This document shows positions 18,020 to 64,000 of a stretch of DNA of 64,000 nt, piece after piece. The position numbers and the translations under genes are program-made. How positions within the stretch are numbered: the first letter of the stretch is position 1; every line of letters starts with the position of its first letter. The notes below the pieces were generated by a model. The model did not search any database. It was not told the DNA's origin and worked only from the letters and a program-made list of their open reading frames with translations. Origin of the DNA: a bacterium (GTDB lineage Bacteria; SAR324; NAC60-12); assembly GCA_965205865.1 (NCBI GenBank), contig CBDBHR010000029.1, positions 817,334 to 881,333 on the forward strand. Direction: 5' to 3'.

Positions 18020-18095
18020 TGGCAGGCCAGACAGGAGTCGAACCTGCGACCCTCGGTTTTGGAGACCGATGCTCTGCCAACTGAGCTACTGGCCT
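18020..18095 (-). tRNA. tRNA-Trp (CCA)
   Basis: AGGCCAGTAGCTCAGTTGG...CTCCAAA...GGTTCGACTCC...CCA. Confidence 0.96.
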
Positions 18096-18132
18096 ACTTG
18101 ATTCTATTTAAACAATGCCACCATGCAGAAAG

Positions 18133-18297
18133 CTATTTGGTTTCCTTATGCATCGTGTGGCGACGATCCCACTTGCAATACTTCATAATTTCCATACGGC
18201 TTTGCTTCAGACTTTTGTTGCGGGAAGTCGTATAATTTTTACGATTGCATTCCTTGCATTCGAGTTGAATGATATCTCGTTTACTTTTTCCTGCCAT
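18133..18297 (-). CDS. rpmG: 50S ribosomal protein L33 (Zn-type)
   Basis: RDIIQLECKECNRKNYTT..KYCKWDRRHTMHKE. Confidence 0.96.
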   Translation of the reverse strand: MAGKSKRDIIQLECKECNRKNYTTSRNKSLKQSRMEIMKYCKWDRRHTMHKETK

Positions 18298-18312
18298 AAT
18301 TTCCTCTTCTAC

Positions 18313-18387
18313 TGGAGCCTGGGAGCAGGATTGAACTGCCGACCTCTTCCTTACCAAGGAAGCGCTCTGCCACTGAGCTACCCAGGC
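18313..18387 (-). tRNA. tRNA-Thr (GGT)
   Basis: Cloverleaf, anticodon loop TTGGTAA, 3' CCA. Confidence 0.96.
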
Positions 18388-18498
18388 AAATCCGCTCTTT
18401 TATGCTGATCAAACAATCGAAACCCACCTCGAGATGACAGGCCTGGGTTGTCTCAGACTTCAACTCCGTTTAATAGATTTGCTCTTTCGTTATATATG

Positions 18499-18583
18499 TG
18501 GTGGGGAGAGAAGGAGTCGAACCTTCGAAGGCTTCGCCGTCAGATTTACAGTCTGATCCCTTTGACCACTCGGGAATCTCCCC
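18499..18583 (-). tRNA. tRNA-Tyr (GTA)
   Basis: 85 nt with long variable arm, loop CTGTAAA, 3' CCA. Confidence 0.96.
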
Positions 18584-18645
18584 AATACTTTGACTTCAGA
18601 AAGGTTTTCTTCTTGGCTGCCAGCCATCGACCTTTCTTTTTTAAC

Positions 18646-18721
18646 TGGAGCTGGCAAAGGGACTTGAACCCACAACCTGCTGATTACAAATCAGCTGCTC
18701 TACCAATTGAGCTATGCCAGC
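18646..18721 (-). tRNA. tRNA-Thr (TGT)
   Basis: Cloverleaf, loop TTTGTAA, 3' CCA. Confidence 0.96.
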
Positions 18722-49950: not shown

Positions 49951-51720
49951 ATGCGCAGACGAACAGGAGGACATATTTTAGCCGATCAACTCAAAATCCA
50001 GGGAGTGGAACGTGTTTTCTGTTTGCCGGGTGAAAGTTTTCTCGAGTTGTTGGACGGGCTTTATGAACACCGGGACTCTATTCAAGTGATCACAACCCGA
50101 CACGAGGGAGGGGCGGCAAATATGGCCGAGGCGTCTGCCAAATTGACCGGTCGTCCGGGAGTGTGTCTGGTGACCCGCGGGCCGGGTGCCACGAACGCCT
50201 CGATCGGAATCCACACGGCCTTTCAGGATTCCACTCCCGTGATTCTCCTCATTGGTCAGGTAGAACGTTCGATGATGGACCGGGAAGCCTTTCAAGAAAT
50301 CGATTTCCGCCGTATGTATGGAGAAATGGCAAAATGGGTGGCGCAAATCGATAGCTCTTCCCGAATTCCGGAATACGTCAGCCGGGCTTTTCACGTCGCT
50401 CTTTGCGGACGCCCGGGTCCGGTGGTGCTTGCCTTGCCGGAGGATATGCTTCGCGAAGAGGCCAATGTGGAGGACGGCAAACCCGCGCATCGGGTGCAAG
50501 CTGCCCCTTCTCCCCAGTCCATGGAAACATTTCGGACGCATCTGCAAGGCGCCGAATCTCCTTTGCTAATAGTCGGGGGCGCCACCTGGACAGAAGAAGC
50601 GGTTGTCCGGATCACGGAGTTCGTGGAAGCGAATCGACTACCAGTTGCAGCATCTTTTCGCTCCCAGGACTGTTTTGACAATCGGCATCCCCAGTATGTA
50701 GGCGACATTGGCATCGCCCTCAATCCGTACCTGGAAAAATTCGTCAGAACCAGTGATTTACTGATTGTTGCCGGGCCAAGGCTGGGAGAAATGACGACAT
50801 CCGGCTACACGCTGCTCGACGTTCCCAATCCGACCCAGAAGCTGATCCATATTCATCCGGGTGCCGAAGAGTTAGGCCGTGTTTTTTATCCCACGTTGGC
50901 GATCAACGCCTCCATGGAGGAATTTACCGCGGCTCTGCCTAAGGTTTTTCCCGTGGATAGCGGGCGCTGGCGAGGAAACATTGCCAAGCACCGTGAATCG
51001 TATTTGGAATATAACATTCCCACTCCAGTCCCCGGATCTCTCAATTTTGGTGAAATCGTCGCGCATTTGAGTAAGGTGTTGCCTGAAGACGCCATCATTA
51101 CCAATGGCGCCGGGAATTACACGGTGTGGGTGCATCGTTTTTTTCAGCACAAACGCTACCGCACGCAAATTGCTCCCAGCAATGGTGCGATGGGATACTC
51201 GGTGCCAGCAGCTATCGGCGTAAAACTGGCAGCGCCGGAACGGTGTGTGGTCAGCTTCAACGGAGATGGATGTTTTCAAATATTCGGACAAGAACTGGGG
51301 ACAGCCATGCAATACGGGGTCGCGGTGATTTTCATCGTGGTCAACAATGGCATGTTGGGCACCATCCGTATGCACCAGGAACGTCATCATCCCGCACGCG
51401 TGATGGCAACCTCTTTGAAGAACCCCGATTTTGCAGCTCTCGCTCGAGCTTATGGCGCGTTTGGGGAACGGGTTCTCCAAACCAAAGCGTTTCCTGCAGC
51501 CTTTGAGAGGGCCAGGACAAGTGGAAAACCTGCTCTTTTGGAATTGATTGTCGACCCGGAAGCTCTCACCCCAAAACAATCTCTCAGTGCCATTCGAGAA
51601 GCCTCGCAAATGGCCATGAGTTTATACTATGGAGAAAAAAGATGTCACCAGTCACCCCAGTCGATCTGCCACGTGATTACTCCCAACGTATCAGGAACGC
51701 CCGGGACCTCAAAGGGTTGA
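49951..51720 (+). CDS. TPP-dependent enzyme (acetolactate synthase large-subunit-like)
   Basis: [31 protein letters not shown]-terminal tail overlaps the next gene. Confidence 0.9.
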
Positions 51721-54700
51721 CGCAAACGCAATTCGCAGAGTTGATTGGCGTTTCCTTCGCCTCGGTCAATCGCTGGGAGAATGGACAATCTCGCCCCAAC
51801 AATCTTGCTTGGCGGCGCATTCTCGAGATCGAAAATTCGTCGGCAAGCGATGTCGTCAACGACTCTCCGGTTGTTTCTGAAAAAGAATCATCGAGGCGCT
51901 TCAGAGAAACTCCCTTGCAGGTACCCTTTCAGCAGAAATTGAATTTTTCTGCTGATGCGAATGCCGTTTCGACCGTCGCCGAGGCGCATCGACTGGCTTA
52001 CGGTCATCTCTTCAATCCCTCGTTCGCAACTGAAACGTCCCGGATCGACCCCCTGCCTCATCAACGAATCGCCGTCTACGAGCACATGCTGCAACAGTCC
52101 CCGCTACGATTTCTGCTGGCTGACGATGCGGGAGCCGGCAAGACGATCATGACGGGTCTGTATGTGCGCGAAATGCTGTCCCGACAGCTTATCCGTCGCG
52201 TGCTCATTGTGCCACCAGCCGGACTGCTAGGCAACTGGGAAAGCGAAATGTGGAACCTGTTTCGCTTGCAATTTCGCATCATCAGCGGCAGCGATGCGCG
52301 ATCAGGCAATCCCTTCCTTGGGCCGGAGAGCGACCTGGTCATCGTCAGCATCGACACTTTGGCCGGGGATCGACTCTTCGGTCAACTCAAAGACCCGAGG
52401 ACAGAGGCCTACGACCTCGTGGTCTTCGACGAGGCTCACAAACTCTCCGCGAATCGTCAGCCGGATTTTCGGGTACGCAAGACGGGTCGCTACAAGCTGG
52501 CAGAAGCCATCGCCGGAGGCGGAGCCGACAGTGAGCAATGGGCGCTGCCCTGGTCTGCCCGGCATTTGCTGTTGCTGACGGCAACGCCACACATGGGAAA
52601 GGACCATCCCTACTATTTCCTGTGGCGCTTGCTGCTGCCGGAAACACTCTCGACCTACGATGCATTCGCCAGCTTCTCCGCTGATTCCCGACAAAGGCAT
52701 TTTATTCGCCGCACCAAGGAGGAGATGGTTCAGTTCGATGGTCTTCCGCTCTATCCCCGCAGAACCTGCAACACGTTAAGCTACCAACTGACGCAGGGAC
52801 CGGAAAACGAACAGGAACTCTACGATGAAACGACGGACTACATCCGCAACAACTACAACCGGGCCAGGATTCTGAATCGATCCGCCGCCCGGCTGGCGAT
52901 GAGCGTCTTCCAGCGGCGTCTCGCCAGTTCCACCTATGCCCTTATGCGCTCCTTCGAGCGTCGCCGAGACAAGCTCACGGCTTTTATTAACGACATTCGG
53001 AACGAGCGGCTCACCGAGGAACAACTTGCGCAACAACAACGACGCCTTGATAACCTCGACGACCAATTCGAAACGAGGACGGCTGACGAGGACGCCGCGT
53101 CCGGAGACGGCCGCGAGCAACATGAAGATTTCGAGTCCAGCGCTCTTGCCGGCACCGTCGCGGTCAGTCTCGCCGAGCTCGAGAAGGAACGTTTCCGGGT
53201 CGCAGAGTTGCTCGACAAAGCACGGAAACTGTACAACGCCGGCGAGGAATCCAAATTCGAGAGACTCCGCGATGTGCTCCAAAATCCCGAATACGCCGAC
53301 CAGAAATTCATTATCTTCACCGAGCACCGCGATACGGCAAACTTCCTCGTGCGCAGACTCGAAAAACTCGGCTTCACCGGTCAGGTCTCCCTGATCCATG
53401 GTGGCATGCCGTACCGGGAGCGTGAGCGACAGGTGGAGTTTTTCCGCAAGCCCTCGACTGGAGAGGGAGCCAACTACCTTGTCGCCACCGACGCTGCCGG
53501 AGAAGGCATCAATCTCCAGTTTTGCTGGTTGATGGTGAACTACGATATCCCCTGGAATCCGGCAAGGCTCGAGCAACGGATGGGACGCATTCATCGCTAT
53601 GGCCAGACGCACGATCCGGTGATCATCATCAACCTGGTGGCAGGAAGCACGCGCGAGGGACGGGTTCTGAAGACGTTGCTCGACAAACTCGAAACAATCC
53701 GTCTCCAACTCCAATCCGACAAGGTATTCGACGTCATCGGCCACCTTTTCCGGGACCTGTCCATCAAGGACTATCTCGAGCAGGCGCTCACGGAAGAAGA
53801 CCCTGCAGCCGCCGTTGAACGTTTGCAAGGCAACCTCACAGGGGAACAAGTCCGGGCTCTCGAGGAAAAGGAGCGCCTGCTATTCGGGGAAGGTGGCGAC
53901 GTCTCCCGCGAACTGGCGCGTCTCAACGATCAGGTGGAGCAGGAAAGTTATCGACGGCTTCTGCCCGGCTACGTGAGACGTTTCCTGGAGAAAGCGGCAC
54001 CGCTGCTCGACCTGCGTATCAAGGGAAATCCGGAAGTTACCTTCGCGCTCTCCCCTGAACAACCCCGTGCGCTCGATGCGTTGTTACCGGTACTTGAAAT
54101 GTATCCCGCAAACACCCGCGATCGTCTGACTGTACATAAACCCGGCAAGAACGAAGAGGTGATCTGGATGCACCCGGGGGAACCGCTGTTTGATCGAATC
54201 TCCACCTCGATTTTAAACCGTTTCGGGCTTGAAGGACTGAAGGGTTCCGTGTTCATCGATCCAAACGCAGCCGAGCCTTATCTGTTCCACGTCGTTTCGG
54301 TTTCCATTGAAAGGTCCTGCAATCAGAACAACACGCAATCGGCCGCTCTGTTGAACGAACCCGGCAACGCCGGAACAGGCACGGGGATTCCCACCTCTTC
54401 GACTGAAAGATACGGTGGGAGCGTTCCCACTCCTTCGATCAATAAATACTGTGGTAGGGTGGTCGATTCGAGACTGCTCGGCCTGCGTCAAATGAACGAC
54501 GGTACCGTTACGCAGTGTCCGGTCGAGCATCTGCTCCTCTTGAGAGAGACCCGGGGCTTCGCTCCGAGCCGGATACCGTTGGCTGCCCGAGCACGCCGGA
54601 TGGCTTCCGCGGCGCTTGAATTTGTTCGGGACGAGGTAGCGGAAGGACTGGCGCAGACCCATCGACGACGACTCCTCGACGAATTACCGGCCCGTATGGA

Positions 54701-55469
54701 GCTCCTCAAACGGGGCTTCGACCATCAGGAAGCCGAACTCGTGCAGGCCCGGGATCGCTGCAATAAAAAAGCCAGCGCCGGTGATCGCCACGCCGGGGAA
54801 GAACTCCCCAGGATCAAAGAACGGCAGCGGAGTCTGAAGGCAGCAAGAACTCGCAGGCTCACCGAACTGAAAGCCGAACCCCAACTCATTCAGACCGGCA
54901 AAGTCGAATTCCTCGTGCACGCGCTCGTGGTGCCCGTTCAGCACCCCGAGGAGGCCGAGCGCTATGATGCCGACGTCGAGGCCATCGCCATGAAAGTGGT
55001 CACTGCCTACGAGGAGCGTTATGGGGCCGAGGTGATAGACGTTTCGCAACCTGAACTTGCGCGTCGCGCGGGGTTGGACAACTGGCCGGGCTTCGATCTC
55101 TTGTCCCGCCCCGCAAACGCCCATGGTCCCGTAGAGAATTCCCACCCTATCGATCCAATGACACTGTGGGAGGGTTCCCACCCGATCGATCAAGAAAAAC
55201 TTTGGGAGCAGCGAGCCATCGAGGTCAAAGGTCGCGCCGGTACCACTAATGTCGAGATGAGCGCCAACGAATGGACCAGGGCCTGCAATCTCCGCGATAA
55301 ATACTGGCTCTACGTCGTCTTTGACTGCGCCACGCCGCGCCCGCGTTTGCTGCGGGTGCGCGATCCGTTTGCAAGGCTGATCGCCGCAAGCCGCGAATCT
55401 TTTGCGTACACGATCACTCCGAAGTCCCTGCACGAGGTGGCAGAGCTCTCGGGGGATATGGAGACCTGA
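51642..55469 (+). CDS. XRE-HTH + SNF2 helicase + DUF3883-type nuclease fusion (defence-associated)
   Basis: LTQ..FA..IGVS..SVNRWENG; LLADDAGAGKT, DEAH, TATP, GEGINLQ, WNPARLEQRMGRIHR; GFDLLS..IEVKG...NEW. Confidence 0.9.
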   Translation: MSPVTPVDLPRDYSQRIRNARDLKGLTQTQFAELIGVSFASVNRWENGQSRPNNLAWRRILEIENSSASDVVNDSPVVSEKESSRRFRETPLQVPFQQKLNFSADANAVSTVAEAHRLAYGHLFNPSFATETSRIDPLPHQRIAVYEHMLQQSPLRFLLADDAGAGKTIMTGLYVREMLSRQLIRRVLIVPPAGLLGNWESEMWNLFRLQFRIISGSDARSGNPFLGPESDLVIVSIDTLAGDRLFGQLKDPRTEAYDLVVFDEAHKLSANRQPDFRVRKTGRYKLAEAIAGGGADSEQWALPWSARHLLLLTATPHMGKDHPYYFLWRLLLPETLSTYDAFASFSADSRQRHFIRRTKEEMVQFDGLPLYPRRTCNTLSYQLTQGPENEQELYDETTDYIRNNYNRARILNRSAARLAMSVFQRRLASSTYALMRSFERRRDKLTAFINDIRNERLTEEQLAQQQRRLDNLDDQFETRTADEDAASGDGREQHEDFESSALAGTVAVSLAELEKERFRVAELLDKARKLYNAGEESKFERLRDVLQNPEYADQKFIIFTEHRDTANFLVRRLEKLGFTGQVSLIHGGMPYRERERQVEFFRKPSTGEGANYLVATDAAGEGINLQFCWLMVNYDIPWNPARLEQRMGRIHRYGQTHDPVIIINLVAGSTREGRVLKTLLDKLETIRLQLQSDKVFDVIGHLFRDLSIKDYLEQALTEEDPAAAVERLQGNLTGEQVRALEEKERLLFGEGGDVSRELARLNDQVEQESYRRLLPGYVRRFLEKAAPLLDLRIKGNPEVTFALSPEQPRALDALLPVLEMYPANTRDRLTVHKPGKNEEVIWMHPGEPLFDRISTSILNRFGLEGLKGSVFIDPNAAEPYLFHVVSVSIERSCNQNNTQSAALLNEPGNAGTGTGIPTSSTERYGGSVPTPSINKYCGRVVDSRLLGLRQMNDGTVTQCPVEHLLLLRETRGFAPSRIPLAARARRMASAALEFVRDEVAEGLAQTHRRRLLDELPARMELLKRGFDHQEAELVQARDRCNKKASAGDRHAGEELPRIKERQRSLKAARTRRLTELKAEPQLIQTGKVEFLVHALVVPVQHPEEAERYDADVEAIAMKVVTAYEERYGAEVIDVSQPELARRAGLDNWPGFDLLSRPANAHGPVENSHPIDPMTLWEGSHPIDQEKLWEQRAIEVKGRAGTTNVEMSANEWTRACNLRDKYWLYVVFDCATPRPRLLRVRDPFARLIAASRESFAYTITPKSLHEVAELSGDMET
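54383..54454 (+). repeat. Tandem pair of degenerate 36-bp repeats inside the helicase gene
   Basis: ggggattcccacctcttcgactgaaagatacggtgg / gagcgttcccactccttcgatcaataaatactgtgg. Confidence 0.7.
55134..55205 (+). repeat. Tandem pair of 36-bp repeats inside the DUF3883 domain
   Basis: gagaattcccaccctatcgatccaatgacactgtgg / gagggttcccacccgatcgatcaagaaaaactttgg. Confidence 0.85.
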
Positions 55470-56187: not shown

Positions 56188-56601
56188 ATGGGAGCAACTC
56201 ACGTCACCGTTACCATTCGGAACCCGGCTGATCCGGACAGAAGTTGGGAAGAGCTGTTTCTGGTCGATACGGGTGCGACCGATTCGCTCGTGCCCAGACC
56301 ACACCTGGAAGCCATCGGTCTCAAGCCCAAAGGCCAGCGGGTATATGAACTGGCCGATGGTCGTGAGATCAAAATGGATATTACGACCGCGGACATTGAA
56401 TTCATGGGCGAAATCGTCGGCGGAACGATTTTATTCGGCGAGGCGAATGCCGAACCGCTGTTGGGTGTCACCGCCTTGGAATCGGTGGGTATCGAAGTCG
56501 ACCCGAGCAACCAACGATTGAAGAGACTGCCCGCCGTGCGGCTCAAGACCCTGCGGAGAATAAATCGAGCCCGGCTGAACGAAACTACTTGCTTATTTTG
56601 A
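56188..56601 (+). CDS. Clan AA aspartic protease (AF_0612-like)
   Basis: LVDTGATDS, LADG, EPLLGVTALE. Confidence 0.88.
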   Translation: MGATHVTVTIRNPADPDRSWEELFLVDTGATDSLVPRPHLEAIGLKPKGQRVYELADGREIKMDITTADIEFMGEIVGGTILFGEANAEPLLGVTALESVGIEVDPSNQRLKRLPAVRLKTLRRINRARLNETTCLF

Positions 56602-56605
56602 CGCA

Positions 56606-59062
56606 ATGTATAAGAAAATCACAGCAACAATTCGGAATTGGTATTGTCGTTTCTTGCGCTCCGGACTATTCAAGTCAGCTGATAATCATGAAATCTCGCC
56701 AACGATTCTCAGAGGTGAGTCGGTAGATAGAAACTCTGATGGCAACGACATACCGCAGCAACCCGAATCCGGAGATCAAGTTGTAAATCCGGGCGCAGAA
56801 CCATCAGATGATTATTCGGAAAAGGTCCATCCCAGTGGAAGTGACGACGAAACTGAGTCCGACAGTTGCTACACCGCCGATGGTCAGGACAATTCGTCCG
56901 AAATACCAGTCCACCAAATTGACCGACCGACGGCCAATGACGAATCGGCCGAGTTCGGCGACGCTACGGACAGTTGGCAGTGCCCTCGGACCTTCACGGA
57001 GAGCGAGCAGGACATACCGAGCAGCGACGATTCACTGAGTGAGTTGTCTGCCCATCCGCCGGAAGACATTGCGCAGAAACCGGATTCGCCTTCCGCGCAC
57101 CCTACTGAAGAGACCGCGATAACGCCTCAGAGTGGCAGCTCCAACATCGGCAACGATTCATCGGAGGATTCGTCGAAGCGGGCTGAAGAACCTGAATCGA
57201 CAGAACCTCGCCAGATTGGCGGAAGGCGACCGCGCCCGACTCGCAACCAACCATCGCCCAAGGAGAATCCCGGCGCGAGGCCACAATTCACGCCCAGACC
57301 CGAACTCATCTGCCGCAAGGTTCCCGGATCGTGGCAATGGGAGGTGGTGCTGCTTGCGGCTGAAGAGTGCCGCATCAAGGAAGTGCGGCACGGTGGGGAA
57401 TCCTTGGTCCCGACGAACGGCGAATACCGCTTATCATCCTTGGCTGGCGAATTGTCCATTGACTATGAAGATCGAAAGCAGGATAAGTTCCCGCTCTTCG
57501 ATGGTAGGCCAATGGTGTTCAAATCTCGGAATGACTGGCGTGGCGATGGTCAGAGGGTTAGTGGCATCACCAGCGGACACTACATCGTCATCACACCGAA
57601 GGAGTGGAAACGCACGGGTCGCGCTCCCGTTGAACAGGAAGGATGCGCAGATACGGATTTCATGGCGCACTACTTCTACCTGCGGAAAGGCGAGTCGGCG
57701 GGAGATATAGACCGGTTCGAGGGATACGAACTGCCACTGACCGAATCCGGCTTTGAGCTGACCGGTGACCGCGTCTTCGATGACTCCAAAGACGGCGAAT
57801 TGTTCGTTGGCGCTCCTCCAAGACTGCTCCCTGCCTCCGGTATCGTGTGGGCACGAATCGGCGAGGAAAAGGAAGGTGGTTGGAAAGGCGAGAACTTCGA
57901 GCCGGTCGCGCGATCTCTTGCTGATGTTTTACAGGGCCGTGAAGGGCGGTTTTTCGTCCGTGTATACGACGATGACGCCAAGTTGCTGGATAGTGGCGAG
58001 TTTCGATATTTGCGTAATCTTCGAGAAATACGCGTGAATGACGAACTCTACAGTGCAGACACGCTACTGGTGCCACCCTCCGCTGGTCATACTTCGGCGC
58101 AGGTGAAATTTATTGGTGTTGGGGACGCCGCCATTCGCCCAATCCTGCCGACCGAGATTACGCTTGCGCTCGTGGGGCAGGGAGATGTCCTCATCGTCGA
58201 GCCGCATCCGGAAGGCGACGACATATCCTGTACTCTGACTTCCGGTACAAACCGAGTTGATACCGTAATCAAGCTGCCGCGTATCTGGTGGCGGATGGAG
58301 CGAGATGAAGGCGAGTCCGATGAATGGCGCGATACTCCCCTGGCGATGACGCGACAAGAATTTCGCAAGTACGCTGAGACGGGAACGGAGATTCGATTGC
58401 GCTTGCCTCCGCGGATCACGTCGATCAAGTCAGGATTCGATGAAAAAGTGGACCGAGTCTACCGCCCTTCCGGCAAAGGAGCTGAAATCGAGATCCCCCT
58501 GGATCACTTTGTCGACTACTCGCAGATTGACCGGAAACCTTACGAGGATGCCTCGTTCAAGGTCCAATGTGAAGAAGCGGCCCTGACACTCATCCGGATT
58601 AACGCCGACCCGGTGCCGACGATCATCTCCTTTACGTCGGAACCGACGGTGGTCGTCAAGGGAGAGGCTGCGACATTGTATTGGGTTACCCGGAATACGG
58701 AGTCCGATGACGTCGCGATCGAGCCCGGAATCGGCTCAGTGAAGTCGAGCGGGAGCATTTCGGTCGTGCCCACCGAAACCACGACCTACACGTTGACGCT
58801 GATGGCTTCCGACAGGGATAACGTGGCCAAAGACCTTGTTCTGACAGTTCACTCCCATCCACTGGCTGGAGAGCGGCCGGTTGCTCACGCCAAACGTACA
58901 GGTAGAAGCTGGCGACAAGGCAAGGGATTCAGCCGGGCCGAGATTCGCGCCGCAGGTCTCACTGACACCGACGCGGCGCGTCGGTCCATCTCCATCGATA
59001 AGCGCCGCCGGAGTATGCACCAAGACAACATAGAGACAATTCGGAGGTCGATCGATGACTGA
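56606..59062 (+). CDS. Multidomain protein: acidic disordered N-terminus, beta-rich core, Ig-like domain, C-terminal eL13-like domain
   Basis: C-terminal RQGKGFSRAEIRAAGL...RRSISIDKRRRSMHQDNIETI; Ig-like PTIISF..P..V..GE..TL.W...PTETTTYTLT. Confidence 0.8.
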   Translation: MYKKITATIRNWYCRFLRSGLFKSADNHEISPTILRGESVDRNSDGNDIPQQPESGDQVVNPGAEPSDDYSEKVHPSGSDDETESDSCYTADGQDNSSEIPVHQIDRPTANDESAEFGDATDSWQCPRTFTESEQDIPSSDDSLSELSAHPPEDIAQKPDSPSAHPTEETAITPQSGSSNIGNDSSEDSSKRAEEPESTEPRQIGGRRPRPTRNQPSPKENPGARPQFTPRPELICRKVPGSWQWEVVLLAAEECRIKEVRHGGESLVPTNGEYRLSSLAGELSIDYEDRKQDKFPLFDGRPMVFKSRNDWRGDGQRVSGITSGHYIVITPKEWKRTGRAPVEQEGCADTDFMAHYFYLRKGESAGDIDRFEGYELPLTESGFELTGDRVFDDSKDGELFVGAPPRLLPASGIVWARIGEEKEGGWKGENFEPVARSLADVLQGREGRFFVRVYDDDAKLLDSGEFRYLRNLREIRVNDELYSADTLLVPPSAGHTSAQVKFIGVGDAAIRPILPTEITLALVGQGDVLIVEPHPEGDDISCTLTSGTNRVDTVIKLPRIWWRMERDEGESDEWRDTPLAMTRQEFRKYAETGTEIRLRLPPRITSIKSGFDEKVDRVYRPSGKGAEIEIPLDHFVDYSQIDRKPYEDASFKVQCEEAALTLIRINADPVPTIISFTSEPTVVVKGEAATLYWVTRNTESDDVAIEPGIGSVKSSGSISVVPTETTTYTLTLMASDRDNVAKDLVLTVHSHPLAGERPVAHAKRTGRSWRQGKGFSRAEIRAAGLTDTDAARRSISIDKRRRSMHQDNIETIRRSIDD

Positions 59063-60281
59063 CGAACTCCTCTCCAACTCTCGCAGTCTGATTGCCGGCA
59101 AAGATAGCAATCGGGCACAACCAAACCAGGAACAGGACAGCAACCAGGAACAAGTCCCAATAACGCAGCCCAATTACGACGTCGAGAAAGATCCGGACAG
59201 TGGTCTCGAAGCCGAAAAAGACGATCCGGAAATAAAGATCGAACGCCCCTTTGATCCTGAGAAAATTAAGGTTCGGACTACCACTATCGTCGTGGAATTG
59301 CTGGTTTCGAGACTCTCATATAAAGAGATTGATCTGGAACCCGACTTTCAACGTTCGTTCGTTTGGGATGACAAGCGCAGATGCCGGTTGATAGAATCCC
59401 TTCTCTTGCGCATTCCCATCCCTGTTTTTTATGTGGCTGCGGATGAAAATGAAAATTGGTCCGTAGTCGACGGAGTTCAGCGCATGTCGACCATATATAA
59501 ATTCGTGAATGGTGAATTTCCACTCAGTCAACTCGAGTATCTCTTACAACTCGATGGACTGAAATACAGCGCCCTTCCGCGATCGATGCAACGGCGGATC
59601 AACGAGACGCAACTTGTCGTGAATATCATAGAACCGGGCACGCCGGAAGACGTGATGTTCAACATTTTCCGGCGCATCAACACTGGTGGCATGACGTTGA
59701 AGGGACAAGAAATCCGTAATGCTCTGCATCGCGGTCCGGTCCGGCAATATCTGAAAGAACTCGCAGAGACCGAGGAATTTCTCGATGCCACGGATCGTTC
59801 GATCAAAAAAAACAGAATGGCCGATCGCGAATGCGTTTTACGCTTCCTGGCATTTTACATCGATCGCTGGGAAGACTATGGCGCTAATGAACTTGATGGC
59901 TATCTCAACTGGACCATGACGAAGATAAACGGAATGACGTTGGAACAATGCGACGCAATTGCCAAAGATTTTAAAAAAGCCATGCAAGCAGCTTGTGACA
60001 TTTTCGGCCAAGACTCGTTTCGTAGACGTTACAACCGGAGTGATTCCCGTCGTCCCGTCAGCAAGGCATTGTTCGAAGCCTGGAGCGTTCGATTGGCGCG
60101 CTGCTCACCCGAGCAGATCAACAGGCTGGTCAAAAGACGGGAGGAGGTCATTGATCAATTCATATCGCTTATGAACCGAGACAGGGAATTCGATAAAGCG
60201 ATCTCATCTTCGACCGGAATACCACGGCATGTCAAAAAACGCTTTAGCACGATCGAAAAGTTGGTTGGGGAGATGGTGTAA
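59055..60281 (+). CDS. DUF262 (ParB-like/GmrS) protein, NsnA-like
   Basis: PDFQRSFVW, LIESLLLRIPIP, VVDGVQR, FRRINTGG. Confidence 0.9.
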   Translation: MTDELLSNSRSLIAGKDSNRAQPNQEQDSNQEQVPITQPNYDVEKDPDSGLEAEKDDPEIKIERPFDPEKIKVRTTTIVVELLVSRLSYKEIDLEPDFQRSFVWDDKRRCRLIESLLLRIPIPVFYVAADENENWSVVDGVQRMSTIYKFVNGEFPLSQLEYLLQLDGLKYSALPRSMQRRINETQLVVNIIEPGTPEDVMFNIFRRINTGGMTLKGQEIRNALHRGPVRQYLKELAETEEFLDATDRSIKKNRMADRECVLRFLAFYIDRWEDYGANELDGYLNWTMTKINGMTLEQCDAIAKDFKKAMQAACDIFGQDSFRRRYNRSDSRRPVSKALFEAWSVRLARCSPEQINRLVKRREEVIDQFISLMNRDREFDKAISSSTGIPRHVKKRFSTIEKLVGEMV

Positions 60282-61405
60282 TGCTCAGCAGTATCAAACT
60301 TTCAAATTTCAAGTGCTTCCAAAGTCTGGAGTTGAATTGTGCTCCGCTTACGCTCTTGAGTGGCTTGAACGGTATGGGAAAAAGCAGCGTGATTCAGGCG
60401 TTACTTATCTTGCGACAATCGTTTCTATCGGGAGACCTGACTGACGGTAAGTTAGTCCTGGGCGGAGAACTCGCGGACCTCGGGACCGGCGTGGACGTGC
60501 TCTTCGAAGACTCGGAGAGTGATAGCGTCGGATTTGAGCTCCATAGTGACAAAATTCGGACCCCATGGGCACTCGCATTCGATTATTCGAAGGCCACCGA
60601 TCAATTGTCCGTTAGCTCCGCTCACCCGAATAGGACCACTCCTCTGGTACCGGCGGCATGGAGTGAAGTCCCGCCTTTTGTGAGCCTGATCTATATCGAT
60701 GCGGAACGGATCGGCCCTCGAAAATTCTATCCACTTTCGGAAACCCGGGGTCGCCGAGGCGACTTCGGAGCGGGCAGTGAATACGCCTTGAATTACTTGA
60801 ACCTGCATCAGGACGAGCGACTGCCGGATGAAGACCCACGTTTCCCCGACACTCGCAGTGGCCGTTTGATCAGCGTCGTCAATCGGTGGTTACAGGAAGT
60901 GACTCCGGGCGCCGAACTGCAACTTGAAACCGTTTCCGCTGCTGATGCCCTGATCGCTGGTTTTTCATTCGATCGACCGGGAGACATCGCAACGCGGCGC
61001 TATCGCACGACGAACGTGGGATTCGGTTTATCTTATACGTTGCCGGTGTTGCTCGCTCTACTGGCGCCTGTGGGTACGTTATGCTTGATTGAGAATCCCG
61101 AGGCGCACCTGCATCCACGCGGGCAGACCAAACTGGCGGAGCTTGCGGTCCGCGCCTCCCTGGCTGGCGTTCAGGTGGTCGTCGAAACCCACAGCGACCA
61201 CTTCATAGACGGAGTTCGTATTGCCGTCCGAGAGAAACTGATACGTCCGCAGGGAGTTGAATTTCACTACTTTGAGCGCATGGACGGCATGACCGTCGTT
61301 TCCTCGCCGCAAGTCGATACGGATGGGCGTTTGTCGTCATGGCCTTCCGGCTTCTTCGAGCAGCACGAAGAAAATCTGGCGAAACTCCTTGCCCCACGGT
61401 CCTGA
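60281..61405 (+). CDS. ABC/AAA ATPase + DUF3696, NsnB-like
   Basis: GLNGMGKSS, NVGFGLSY.LP, IENPEAHLHP, ETHSDH, G....WP.GFF.Q. Confidence 0.9.
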   Translation: MLSSIKLSNFKCFQSLELNCAPLTLLSGLNGMGKSSVIQALLILRQSFLSGDLTDGKLVLGGELADLGTGVDVLFEDSESDSVGFELHSDKIRTPWALAFDYSKATDQLSVSSAHPNRTTPLVPAAWSEVPPFVSLIYIDAERIGPRKFYPLSETRGRRGDFGAGSEYALNYLNLHQDERLPDEDPRFPDTRSGRLISVVNRWLQEVTPGAELQLETVSAADALIAGFSFDRPGDIATRRYRTTNVGFGLSYTLPVLLALLAPVGTLCLIENPEAHLHPRGQTKLAELAVRASLAGVQVVVETHSDHFIDGVRIAVREKLIRPQGVEFHYFERMDGMTVVSSPQVDTDGRLSSWPSGFFEQHEENLAKLLAPRS

Positions 61406-61406
61406 C

Positions 61407-62330
61407 ATGCGAGAGATGGTTCTTAATCATGCGAGCGTTGTATCGCCCGATAGCCACACAGCCGTTGAATGGCTGAAGGACGTAGGTACCGGTATGGCGC
61501 AACTCGTCGCCAAAGGTGTAGCAGAATCAAGTCTGAGGATGTGCCGTCACCCATCCGAAATCAACTGCGTGCTCGGTTGTTCATTATTCGATGCTTACCT
61601 GGAGTTACTGAAGGATGGAGATCGGGACAAGGGTAAATTCCTCATGCGTCTGAGCGAGAAACGTCCGCTTCTGAGCGACGTCGAGTTGGATGTCAAGGAC
61701 CGGTTTCTTGCTTGTGAGGCAAAAGATTTGTCGCCGGAAAACGGAGAACCGCTGGTCTTGTGTGCCATCACTGATTGGATTGCAGTCGGGTTTCCGTCGG
61801 CTCCGGGTTGGGATCACGACTGCCTCACGGTCAGCTTCAACGAGCTACTGCCCGACGGCAGCATTGAGGAAACCTCCGAAACAATAGACAATCTCACTCG
61901 ATCCGTTCATGCTTTGTCGATTTGCGAGCGTCGCCATGCTATCCTTCTTCGTTGCCTAAGTCCCTTGGCATTGTGGGAGCGAAGGGAAGAGGTGTTCCAG
62001 AATCTTATTTTCGGGCCGGACGTAAAAATAGACCCAGAGTTTTTTGGGCCTACTGTCAAAAAGTTTATTGCCCTCGACGAATCGGCCGCTAAATGGCGCA
62101 AGGTCGGAGGGAGTGTGCCTCCATGGACTTGTACGGTAACACCCGAAACCGTCAACCTGAAGAATAATCCTAAACTCCGTGAGGCGCGCCGATTCAAATC
62201 ACAGGCTGGTACGCGAGAACTATTCGACTGGCATGCCAAATTCAGCAATGGCCGACGCATTCACCTTCGTTTCAATGCGGACTCGCGAAAAATCGAAATT
62301 GGGTACATAGGTCCCCATCTGCCACTCTGA
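61407..62330 (+). CDS. Putative effector with C-terminal RelE/colicin D-like RNase motif, NsnC-like
   Basis: C-terminal FDWHAKF...RIHL......IEIGYIGPHLP; ATG follows the ATPase stop. Confidence 0.6.
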   Translation: MREMVLNHASVVSPDSHTAVEWLKDVGTGMAQLVAKGVAESSLRMCRHPSEINCVLGCSLFDAYLELLKDGDRDKGKFLMRLSEKRPLLSDVELDVKDRFLACEAKDLSPENGEPLVLCAITDWIAVGFPSAPGWDHDCLTVSFNELLPDGSIEETSETIDNLTRSVHALSICERRHAILLRCLSPLALWERREEVFQNLIFGPDVKIDPEFFGPTVKKFIALDESAAKWRKVGGSVPPWTCTVTPETVNLKNNPKLREARRFKSQAGTRELFDWHAKFSNGRRIHLRFNADSRKIEIGYIGPHLPL

Positions 62331-62599: not shown

Positions 62600-62719
62600 G
62601 TTAGATCCTAGCCGAAAAGGTATTTTTTAGAATTATATCTTTAACTTGAGGTTAGAAAGTGCCATAATTCATTGAAATAACTGTGAATAACTTCAATATT
62701 AAGAATTATGGCACCCAAA

Positions 62720-64000
62720 ATGAAACCATTCATTCGAGCAGAAAAACATCTTTTTTTAAGCGCTCCTGATACAGAATTTGAAAATTTCTTATCAGAACTT
62801 GATCAATTGTCTGAGCGAGAGCCGGAGATATTGGACAAAATTGAACAGGATTTGGAGAAATACGCAAGAAATAAAAAGAAAGAGCGTTTAGAGGATAAAC
62901 GATGGCAGGAAGCCCGGAATCCATGGCTTCCTCATCTTCCCGTAGAAGATGAGGAATTGAAGCCGGAAGAACTGAGGCTGGAAATAGGGTGTCCTCGGAT
63001 GTCGGCTTTTTTAGTCTACCTTTTTATGATGATTCGGGGATACTTAGGAAGTATCAAATCCCAAACGGCCCAAATATTTCTTTCAGAGTCAATCACACTG
63101 CATCTGCTTCTGCTCAACCGTGGATTGAAAATGCCGGGAGCGAGTACAATCCTTGATAATGTCAATGCTGTCAGCAACGAGACCAGACAGTTTATTTTCG
63201 ATGCTCAAATTCGAATGGTTCTCAATAAAGAGTTGGACGATTTTGATATTTTAAAACTGGATAGCACCTCTGTAAAAGGAAATACAGCTTGGCCTACTGA
63301 TTCGTCGATATTGACTCGTCTCGTGGAGCGAAGCTACCATCGAGGGCGTTCCCTTGATACATTTGGAATCGCTAAGATCAGTGAAAGAAATTTTGATTTC
63401 CTCATCAAGGAGATGAATAAGCTCTCTAAGATGATTGCTTTTGAGACAGGTAAAAAGGACAGTAAAACGAAGCGAAAAAAACATTACAAAACCCTATTGA
63501 AGAAAGCTCAAAGCGCTCATGGGAAATTTTTAAAAGAAATGGCAAAGGTGGATATCCGTGCCCAAAAAGCTCTTCTCCCCCCTTCTCGGAAAACGCGTTT
63601 GATTCGCCTCATTGAAATGATGAATGAAGATATTTCTAATTTGCAACGGGTAATCATCTACTGTCATCAAAGAGTTTTTGAAGAAAAGAAGGTTCCTTCC
63701 ACTGAGAAAGTATTGAGTCTTTCCGATCAGAGCTCGGCTTATATTCAAAAGGGAGATCGAGAAGCGCTTATCGGATATAAGCCTCAATTAGGAAGGAGCG
63801 GAAATGGTTTTATTTCCGTGTTAATTACTCCGGAGGGCAATGCTGCTGATTCAGGGCAACTCGACCCTGCCCTTGTTGAACATTTGCGATGCACCATCAC
63901 CATTCCCTCTGAAGTGAGCCTTGATGATGGATATGCCAATCAGGCAATCAGAGAAAAGTGGATGGGCAAAGGCGTTAAGGTTTTTAGTATTAGTGGGGCA
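62720..64000 (+). mobile_element. ISNCY/IS5-like DDE transposase, runs off the window end (absent from the ORF track because it has no stop)
   Basis: Frame MKPFIRAEK...KLDSTSVKGNTAWPTDSSIL...IQKGDREALIGYKPQLGRS...DDGYAN. Confidence 0.85.

Follow-up and report, generated by a model that had tools for sequence, protein, structure and literature searches.

An Ig-array protein with an archaeal-type eL13 tail, adjoining a Menshen operon, belongs to a family of DruE helicase partners

Druantia is widespread, and its type III-B is described as DruH plus a compact DruE helicase without PLD domains. Passages of two 2026 cryo-EM preprints present DruH as an array of Ig/Fn3-like domains and report it as a single-stranded DNA-binding protein and likely sensor, while indicating that the role of this non-helicase partner is still debated (10.64898/2026.05.12.722862; 10.64898/2026.05.13.724758). 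Part of a mycobacterial study further reports that DruE can be replaced by other helicases and that DruH alone is toxic (PMC13316683). Menshen has been described with three genes only, across 1997 systems (PMC12065111); that paper makes no mention of L13e, Druantia, Ig-like domains or a fourth gene, and "ribosomal" occurs in it twice, in the reference list only. The abstract of the same paper notes the habit of Menshen systems of exchanging their sensor domains.

We analyzed a 64-kb stretch of DNA (the window) that had been predicted to carry a four-gene, Menshen-like defence operon headed by a large protein, P0001, with an eL13-like ribosomal domain at its C-terminus. The eL13 module proved real and conserved, and it does form the end of a large protein with several domains and a defence setting, but P0001 is not the regular head of a Menshen operon. 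P0001 belongs to a previously unnamed family of DruE partners, here given the working name P1. We consider it the likelier reading that the helicase is gone from this locus, that the locus comprises two adjacent defence systems rather than one four-gene system, and that P1 is a sensing or targeting subunit. The features are as follows.

56606-59062, + strand: P0001 ORF, 818 aa with no internal stop; member of P1, the multi-Ig partners of compact DruE helicases
56609-56662, + strand: N-terminal basic amphipathic helix, residues 2-19 (AF2; block pLDDT 82 and 72; pI 10.6)
56663-57277, + strand: acidic, S/T/P-rich disordered linker, residues 20-224 (pLDDT <50)
57302-58855, + strand: Ig-like beta-sandwich array, residues 233-750 (AF2 all-beta, pLDDT mostly 84-96)
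58847-59059, + strand: eL13-core module, residues 748-818, strongly basic, pI 11.5 (Pfam, NCBIfam, PDB profile and Foldseek)
59055-59062, + strand: 8-nt overlap ATGACTGA of the P0001 stop and the NsnA start; putative deletion or recombination junction
59055-60281, + strand: NsnA, ParB/DUF262 sensor of Menshen (PADLOC NsnA, 6e-145; Pfam GmrSD_N, 8.6e-25)
60281-61405, + strand: NsnB, ABC/AAA ATPase with DUF3696 (PADLOC, 4.6e-104; Pfam AAA_15, AAA_21 and DUF3696)
61407-62330, + strand: NsnC (PADLOC, 7.7e-50, residues 29-335)
62708-64000, + strand: ISNCY-family transposase, running off the end of the window (NCBIfam NF033593, 7.1e-64, below its own 325-bit cut-off)

The three genes downstream of P0001 are Menshen proper: NsnA, NsnB and NsnC matched all three PADLOC models in canonical order at 59055-62330. 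The NsnC ORF is listed from 61323, but the ATG at 61407 is its probable start, because the PADLOC alignment begins at residue 29 of the listed ORF. The RNase effector role originally predicted for NsnC gained no support from sequence: no Pfam family matched, and the PDB offered nothing better than E=1.6.

P0001 itself had no match to any PADLOC model, even at E<=10. The acidic disordered N-terminus of ~220 aa and the Ig-like domain of the original prediction were both borne out: residues 25-224 have a pI of 4.1 (45 D+E vs 14 K+R), and the all-beta array resembled multi-Ig chains in Foldseek. A search with the full-length model returned only generic chains of this kind, such as contactin and titin (TM 0.1-0.2), and the DruH structure was absent among its matches in the PDB copy searched. 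The N-terminal helix is partly kept among close relatives, and the Ig-like region contains the invariant columns of the P1 family. Conservation is highest in the eL13 tail and lowest in the disordered linker (tail 84%, core 70% and linker 46% identity to relative P0008); against the closer relative P0006, the disordered stretch is 86% and the core 94% identical.

The C-terminal module shows true homology to the eL13 core and is nearest to that of archaeal L13e. The last ~60 residues on which the prediction was based are the exact translation of the end of the ORF. Pfam Ribosomal_L13e (gathering cut-off 24.9 bits) matched residues 748-810 of the whole protein at profile positions 39-103 of 180 (E=2.3e-7, 31.3 bits), and the tail alone at E=1.5e-8 and 35.2 bits. 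The NCBIfam model of archaeal 50S L13e (NF008914) matched residues 758-814 at model positions 15-73 of 83 (E=7.1e-12, 44.8 bits); this score falls below the cut-off of 96 bits for a full-length equivalog, as expected because the module is a domain, the C-terminal 7%, of a larger protein. Searched against the PDB, the P1 family profile returned only eL13 chains among the 60 matches listed, the best being 9e6q_AH from the Pyrobaculum 50S subunit (E=1.2e-8). When the tail was modelled by itself in AlphaFold (pLDDT 84.7), all 50 Foldseek matches listed for the model were ribosome entries, 9e6q_AH included (TMq 0.60-0.76, prob 1.00), and many of the matched chains are those named eL13 in the PDB profile search. 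An unbiased profile search of 1.84 billion proteins gave 1381 clusters at E<=1e-3 and recovered short stand-alone proteins at 1e-15 to 1e-17; four of the 10 stand-alone clusters looked up hold members named ribosomal protein L13e, which, where an organism is given, come from Bathyarchaeota and Korarchaeota/Thermoproteota.

The tail shares with archaeal eL13 (PF01294, NF008914) both the core G[KR]GFSxxELxxAGL...IPxDxRRR.xH..N and the predicted fold, and the invariant columns of the tail alignment are G17, G19, F20, S21, E24, D43, R45, R46 and H50. The archaeal protein, however, is a stand-alone ribosomal protein, whereas the P1 version is a 60-aa C-terminal module of an 818-aa bacterial protein; to our knowledge, bacteria lack eL13 and it is absent from their ribosomes. 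A module of ~55 aa that is rich in arginine might match by chance, and tandem AGFSxxEL repeat proteins also score on the profile (15 matched stretches in P0256). We nevertheless regard a chance match as very improbable, as four independent methods agree on eL13, all 34 P1 family tails examined match Ribosomal_L13e and no other Pfam family (E<=0.01), and the search of 1.84 billion proteins recovers archaeal L13e; the profile, PDB, structure and large-scale search results contradict this reading together.

At least 386 P1 homologues were found at E<=1e-3 among the candidates scored, and a tblastn search of a plasmid collection with P0001 gave no match. Members have a variable N-terminus, the Ig-like array and a C-terminal module from the gene-expression machinery, which by default is the eL13 core (109 of 120 database matches and 41 of 53 genomic loci from many phyla, the set used for neighbourhood comparison). 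In a few members other modules replace or join the eL13 tail: whole uS17 in P0090 (2e-30) and L036 (3e-27), whole uS2 in L052 (3.5e-92), sigma-70 regions 2-4 in L049 and L053, and an SNF2 module in L050. The alternative tails of P0031, P0101, P0052, L008, L013, L041, L051 and L026 had no Pfam match at E<=1, and those of L040 and L043 had weak, sub-threshold matches only (E=0.19 and 0.36). ESM Atlas gave no usable match for the basic helical tail of L013 and, for the P0101 tail, a best score of 0.80 to DUF3104, which is a lead only. We found no description of the P1 family or its eL13 tail in the literature searched, and no paper there that links L13e to anti-phage defence or names it in connection with Druantia or YprA.

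The neighbourhood survey confirmed that P1 homologues almost always lie beside a defence gene, as predicted, but the partner is a compact DruE and not Menshen. In 51 of the 53 loci P1 is followed directly, in the same orientation, by a DruE-like ORF, and neither NsnA nor NsnC occurs near P1 in any of the 53 related loci; an NsnB-like ATPase ORF, without NsnA or NsnC, lies 4.6-8 kb from P1 in three. On these grounds we read P1 as the DruH-positioned partner within a Druantia type III-like pair. Consistent with this, 12 of the 35 best P1 database matches have the same longest-contig size as a DruE match. The partner helicases are of the compact DruE type (YprA/MrfA; ~1400 aa), scored as DruE in PADLOC in all four cases tested (E=1e-144 to 1e-159) and, in all three tested against Pfam, contained only DEAD, Helicase_C and MZB, with no PLD domains. 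Junctions between P1 and DruE often overlap by 8 nt through the same ATGNCTGA as in P0001-NsnA.

The likeness to Druantia type III thus comprises an operon of two overlapping genes, the first for a large non-catalytic protein of Ig-like domains and the second for a DEAD/Helicase_C/MZB helicase that scores as DruE and, as in type III-B, lacks PLD domains. The differences are that P1 has no detectable DruH homology, that it is smaller (about 550-950 aa vs about 1100 aa for DruH), that it ends in a ribosomal-protein module, and that the helicase is absent from this window. Could P1 nonetheless be a true DruH orthologue, for instance the DruH of type III-B, diverged past sequence detection? Gene position, druE overlap and orientation are all as in DruH, the protein is large and carries an Ig-like array, and the partner helicases fit the description of type III-B. 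On the other hand, no PADLOC DruH model matched any of the five P1 members tested at E<=10, whereas 11 matched a canonical DruH used as control (best E=0); hhalign gave a probability of 0.3% for P1 against canonical DruH; and NCBIfam YjiT_fam matches DruH and not P0001. The compact DruE of Clostridium butyricum is moreover paired with yet another, unrelated protein (hhalign against P1, again 0.3%), which also argues against orthology. We therefore consider orthology somewhat unlikely, and the analogy of P1 with DruH is one of gene position and gross architecture.

At the junction in the window, the P0001 stop (TGA, 59060-59062) overlaps the NsnA ATG at 59055 by 8 nt, as had been noted for the DUF262 gene. 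P0001 ends in ...SIDD and its closest relatives, P0006 and P0007, in ...SIDA; the IDD end is seen in the window's protein alone and arises because the NsnA start, ATGACTGAC, forces the last codon. The same ATGACTGAC encodes MTD, with which proteins of this NsnA clade natively begin (the window's NsnA starts MTDELLSNS), and the junction lies inside the last codon of P1. We found no DruE within the 64-kb window, where tblastn with a DruE of the family gave only matches at E>=3. Because this usual Druantia-type helicase partner is missing here, P0001 is best described as abutting rather than heading the Menshen operon.

Longest-contig sizes suggest that P1 and NsnABC are neighbours in relatives, since P1 and NsnA clusters share sizes of 776,450 bp and 34,034 bp. 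The 776,450-bp size is also that of a DruE cluster, and none of the 120 DruE clusters listed has a longest contig of 34,034 bp. The DruE on the 776,450-bp contig starts MPDAND, compatible with an overlap to a ...SIDA end. The simplest reading of the window's arrangement is the loss of DruE, fusing two neighbouring systems, and what looks like a neat operon of four genes was most likely left behind when the DNA between them was deleted, a cautionary lesson. P0001 is intact, the 8-nt coupling is kept and the linker diverges from that of P0006 more than the core does, which would also fit a protein under selection; if so, its working partner could be Menshen or a DruE whose gene lies beyond the window.

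Under the preferred reading of two adjacent systems, P1 would often be coupled translationally to a downstream DruE through the ATGNCTGA overlap, taking the place of DruH, and would, by analogy with DruH, sense or target without being catalytic itself. The basic tail that it took from a ribosomal protein would bind ribosomes, structured RNA or nucleic acid in single-stranded form; the disordered, acidic region near the N-terminus may shield this tail; and engagement would license the partner motor protein. In the window, the helicase gene would have been lost, leaving the P1 stop overlapping the native start of a complete neighbouring NsnABC. P0001 without DruE is probably inactive or acting alone, and its coupling to Menshen, though possible, finds no support here.

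That coupling is central to an alternative, which we think unlikely, in which P0001 was added to Menshen as a sensor or targeting subunit after a partner swap, giving a rewired four-gene system. Its ORF is intact, its overlap with NsnA is kept and its tail is strongly conserved; the reported swapping of sensor domains by Menshen would fit too, and an orphan might need a new partner, as the reported toxicity of lone mycobacterial DruH and its acceptance of other helicases suggest. Yet a P0001-like gene is no component of Menshen in any other locus examined or in the published description, where the system has three genes throughout, and the arrangement looks young because only the window has the IDD end forced by fusion. 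Modelling P0001 (residues 225-818) and NsnA (residues 62-408) as a complex, with own alignments, yielded a score of 0.00 against a mark of 0.32, which is no evidence on binding either way.

The tail and its substitutes might instead be integrated decoys, copies of transcription or translation components attacked by phage proteins, with attack triggering the system; part of one study applies this idea, which comes from plant NLR receptors, to bacterial bNACHT11 (PMC11702601). As in the NLR receptors, an immune protein carries a fused module that varies and that was copied from a central pathway of the host, and the uS17, uS2, sigma-70 and SNF2 modules bind different sites, which argues against a single common docking site. 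The likeness is purely conceptual, however; bacteria offer no original that the default eL13 module could imitate, the proposed system is without a known trigger, and swaps are seen in few members, making decoys a doubtful account. Similarly improbable in our view is a bolder combination, in which P1 is a new class of immune sensor, the eL13, uS17, uS2, sigma-70 and RapA-like SNF2 modules are swappable plugs or decoys of the ribosome and RNA polymerase, and the window records a recoupling from Druantia to Menshen. Were it true, sensor and effector cassettes would be exchangeable at a conserved overlapping start/stop joint.

Returning to P1 as a DruE partner, the family puts an unrelated Ig-array protein with a ribosomal-protein end (eL13 by default, uS17 or uS2 in some) in the place of DruH. 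Its tail suggests that the cue or anchor of an otherwise DNA-centred system could be RNA, ribosomes or the machinery of gene expression. With P1, the core of a ribosomal protein known from archaea and eukaryotes would have been recruited into bacterial proteins, a case of which we found no report in the literature searched.

As for the surroundings, a small retropepsin-like ORF just upstream of P0001 (56188-56601) was dropped, having a counterpart in none of the related loci. A scan for promoter-like sites (10 vs 7.3 expected from shuffling) and terminator-like sites (3 vs 9.8 expected) did not define the operon. Downstream, GC content falls to 0.38-0.42 in the region of the ISNCY-family transposase, compared with about 0.55 upstream, and this transposase in low-GC DNA marks an island edge.

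P0001, a protein of the window whose C-terminal end was quoted in the original prediction with exactly the residues that translation gives, is the upstream neighbor of a Menshen system and is joined in this region by the following features:

56606-59062, plus strand: P0001 open reading frame, 818 residues (translation)
P0001 residues 2-19: basic helix (predicted)
62708-64000, plus strand: ISNCY-family transposase directly after NsnC (E = 7e-64, below the family cut-off)

The proposed eL13 (L13e) nature of the tail held up in profile and structure searches. Pfam Ribosomal_L13e matched P0001 residues 748-810 with E = 2.3e-7 and 31.3 bits, exceeding its curated threshold (24.9 bits), and the isolated tail at 35.2 bits. 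The NCBIfam archaeal 50S L13e model matched residues 758-814 at model positions 15-73 of 83 (E = 7.1e-12); its score, 44.8 bits, falls short of the 96-bit equivalog threshold, which is to be expected of a domain lying within a larger protein. A profile of 39 members of the P0001 family, which we call P1, found 73 PDB sequences at E ≤ 1; all 60 matches listed were eL13, the best being chain 9e6q_AH of the Pyrobaculum calidifontis 50S subunit (E = 1.2e-8, 50 residues aligned without gaps). For the isolated tail, a structure predicted from a 34-sequence alignment (pLDDT 84.7) had 134 Foldseek matches at E ≤ 10, and the 50 listed were all ribosome entries (TMq 0.60-0.76, probability 1.00), many of them chains named eL13. 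The remaining architecture was likewise as first described: an acidic disordered N-terminus (residues 20-224, pLDDT <50; pI 4.1 and D+E 45 vs. K+R 14 over residues 25-224), an Ig-like part modeled as an all-beta array (residues 233-750), and a stop codon sharing 8 nt with the next ATG. The tail has a pI of 11.5.

We then asked what accompanies P1 elsewhere. Searching with P0001 residues 225-818, we scored 7999 candidates and obtained 386 homologues at E ≤ 1e-3, the best 120 of which reach down to E = 1e-176. When one genome was scanned for each species, 53 P1 loci emerged, in Latescibacterota, Thermodesulfobacteriota, Limisphaerales, Binatia, Rhodothermales, Alpha- and Gammaproteobacteria, as well as in Acidobacteriota, Dehalococcoidia/SAR202, Gemmatimonadota, Oligoflexales, and Spirochaetia. 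The idea that such a protein regularly heads a Menshen operon found no support in this survey: NsnA and NsnC relatives were found in none of the 53 loci, and an NsnB-like ATPase ORF, without NsnA or NsnC, lay 4.6-8 kb away in three. Clustering of neighboring ORFs gave a single conserved neighbor, a protein of ∼1400 aa encoded immediately downstream on the same strand, which a direct search recovered in 51 of 53 loci; at one exception (L031) the contig ends inside the gene, and at the other (L045) it is the P1 ORF that is truncated. All that is left of this neighbor at L014 is a 156-aa fragment. PADLOC identified the neighbor as DruE, the Druantia helicase, in four of four cases tested (1e-144 to 1e-159), and its Pfam domains (three of three tested) were DEAD, Helicase_C, and MrfA zinc-binding only, with no PLD. 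This make-up matches that of the compact type III-B or type III-like Druantia helicases as described by Bell et al. (PMC12458937) and Himpich et al. (10.64898/2026.05.13.724758). The 8-nt overlap of the form ATGNCTGA seen between P0001 and NsnA recurs in 21 of 49 P1-DruE pairs (naive start calling).

P1 resembles DruH, the DruE partner in Druantia type III, in where its gene lies, in overlapping druE, and in a body predicted to consist of Ig-like domains; two cryo-EM preprints describe Ig/Fn3-like domain arrays in DruH, and one of them ssDNA binding inhibited by ATP (10.64898/2026.05.12.722862, 10.64898/2026.05.13.724758). Judged by profile searches, however, P1 is not DruH. No PADLOC model matched P0001 or four other P1 members even at E ≤ 10, whereas 11 PADLOC DruH models matched a canonical DruH encoded on a Marinobacter plasmid (best E = 0); NCBIfam YjiT_fam matched that DruH and left P0001 unmatched, and a profile-profile comparison of P1 with DruH gave a probability of 0.3%. 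A Clostridium butyricum plasmid (L054; NZ_CP013238.1, 1798-9683) encodes a compact DruE (1559 aa, PADLOC 6e-177); the hypothetical protein ahead of it (1069 aa) had no match to the P1 profile or to the DruH models and is a third kind of DruE partner, unrelated to both. We rate P1-DruE as a Druantia type III-like pair, which differs from Druantia type III in that the partner is not DruH and bears modules from ribosomal proteins. The text of the Druantia and Menshen papers examined makes no mention of L13e or ribosomal-protein fusions; "ribosomal" occurs in the Menshen survey paper (PMC12065111) in the reference list only, and literature searches for L13e with anti-phage, Druantia, or YprA returned nothing relevant.

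The eL13 module is a common, well-conserved part of the family. A 34-tail profile found it in 109 of the best 120 of 386 homologues and in 41 of 53 loci, Ribosomal_L13e was the only Pfam match for 34 of 34 tails, and the tail is the best-conserved segment of P0001: in comparison with the homologue P0008, identity is 84% in the tail, 70% in the core, and 46% in the disordered stretch. Searched against 1.84 billion protein representatives, the tail profile hit 1381 clusters at E ≤ 1e-3 (465 of them at E ≤ 1e-10), comprising P1-like proteins with a C-terminal module, fragments, and 64- to 142-aa proteins with an N-terminal module. Four of 10 short-protein clusters looked up contain members named ribosomal protein L13e, which, if an organism is stated, come from Bathyarchaeota and Korarchaeota/Thermoproteota; this makes archaeal L13e the closest match of the P1 module. 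Two proteins, P0256 (817 aa) and P0361 (913 aa), matched the profile through 15-19 stretches, and P0256 is made up mostly of tandem AGFSAxELKx repeats of ∼10 residues; the GFSxxEL core can occur as a repeat unit.

Other members carry different modules. A complete uS17 domain replaces the eL13 tail in P0090 (Pfam 2.4e-30) and in a Dehalococcoidia homologue (L036:9617-12586; 2.7e-27), the latter still upstream of DruE. In Candidatus Spongiisociaceae (L052:9293-12142), the tail gives way to a complete uS2 domain (profile positions 1-216 of 216; Pfam 3.5e-92) that follows the Ig core and precedes the DruE gene, which overlaps. The P0031 group, L008, and L013 have a basic helical tail instead, and several further members have replaced tails without an assigned family. 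Sigma-70 regions 2-4 form the N-terminus at two Thermoanaerobaculia loci (L049:7427-11473 and L053:7388-11458), whose ∼1350-aa ORFs carry them in frame, without a stop, and have a degenerate eL13-like end; L049 and L014 belong to one genome, which thus has two P1 loci. In Longimicrobiales (L050:8618-13885), an SNF2 helicase (SNF2-rel_dom 2e-61) and the P1 core form one fusion protein, which also has a weak NusG-like match; DruE comes next.

The window itself departs from this pattern. A tblastn search of its 64 kb with family DruE found none (best E = 3). The five closest relatives of P0001 all end in IDA (RRSIDA in P0006, P0007, and P0008, with 94-72% identity; RRLIDA in P0010 and P0011), whereas P0001 alone ends in RRSIDD. 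An overlap reading GAT GCC TGA pairs with a DruE starting M-P-D, and MPDAND begins the DruE cluster whose contig size, 776450 bp, is also that of P0007; in the window, GAT GAC TGA pairs with ATG ACT GAC, or M-T-D. The NsnA clade to which the window's NsnA belongs natively begins MTDELLSNS, a start also found in NsnA homologues on contigs matching none of the P1 hits listed. The native MTD start and the IDD/IDA difference together place the joint, on this sequence reading, inside the last codon of P1, the start regions on either side differing at ∼1 base in nine.

Contig sizes point to the surroundings in relatives. The 776450-bp size is common to P1, DruE, and NsnA clusters and a 34034-bp size to P1 and NsnA clusters, with no DruE cluster of that size among the 120 listed; 12 of the 35 best P1 hits match listed DruE clusters in contig size, including P0010 (70% identity, 11.9-kb contig). 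From these equal sizes, P1-DruE and Menshen seem to be adjacent in relatives. Given the absent DruE, the last-codon joint, and this apparent adjacency, the simplest history is that P1-druE adjoined nsnABC and druE was then lost. We rate the window as holding a decapitated copy of the P1-DruE pair fused to Menshen, with P0001 most likely left as an orphan; a functional link with Menshen may exist, and the one observation pointing to it is the preserved overlap.

The architecture, the homology of the tail, the pairing of the family with DruE, and the lack of DruE in the window are shown. Beyond these, we propose that P1 would act, without catalysis of its own, as the subunit for sensing or targeting. 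Structured RNA, ribosomes, or single-stranded nucleic acid would be bound by the basic tail, which the acidic stretch may mask, and engagement would license the motor that partners P1. Two readings would fit the variety of substitute modules, namely that they anchor P1 to the expression machinery or that they serve as decoys; the latter reading is weakened because bacteria, to our knowledge, have no eL13 to mimic.

As for the predicted Menshen-like operon, the three genes downstream of P0001 are Menshen proper (PADLOC NsnA 6e-145, NsnB 4.6e-104, NsnC 7.7e-50), and what falls away is P0001 as a regular member, with NsnA and NsnC missing from the 53 related P1 loci. The NsnC alignment starts at residue 29 of the listed ORF, so its start is probably the ATG at 61407, directly after the NsnB stop; Pfam and a PDB sequence search found neither a family nor a solved relative for its putative RNase effector domain. 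The ISNCY transposase lies in DNA of 38-42% GC, against ∼55% in the island, and the island is therefore mobile ground. Upstream on the plus strand, a 1275-aa protein (51642-55469) with HTH, SNF2 helicase, and NOV_C domains matches PADLOC HmaA (1e-170) and, below cut-off, an NCBIfam DrmD-like model; no methylase or ATPase partner was seen adjoining it, and it is probably a further defense gene of the same island. Between this gene and P0001, a small retropepsin-like aspartyl protease ORF (56188-56601, plus strand; Pfam gag-asp_proteas 28.8 bits, cut-off 28.2) stops 4 nt ahead of the P0001 start codon and has a counterpart in none of the 53 related loci. Four clustered tRNA genes (Trp, Thr, Tyr, Thr; 18020-18721, minus strand) lie in the housekeeping part of the window.
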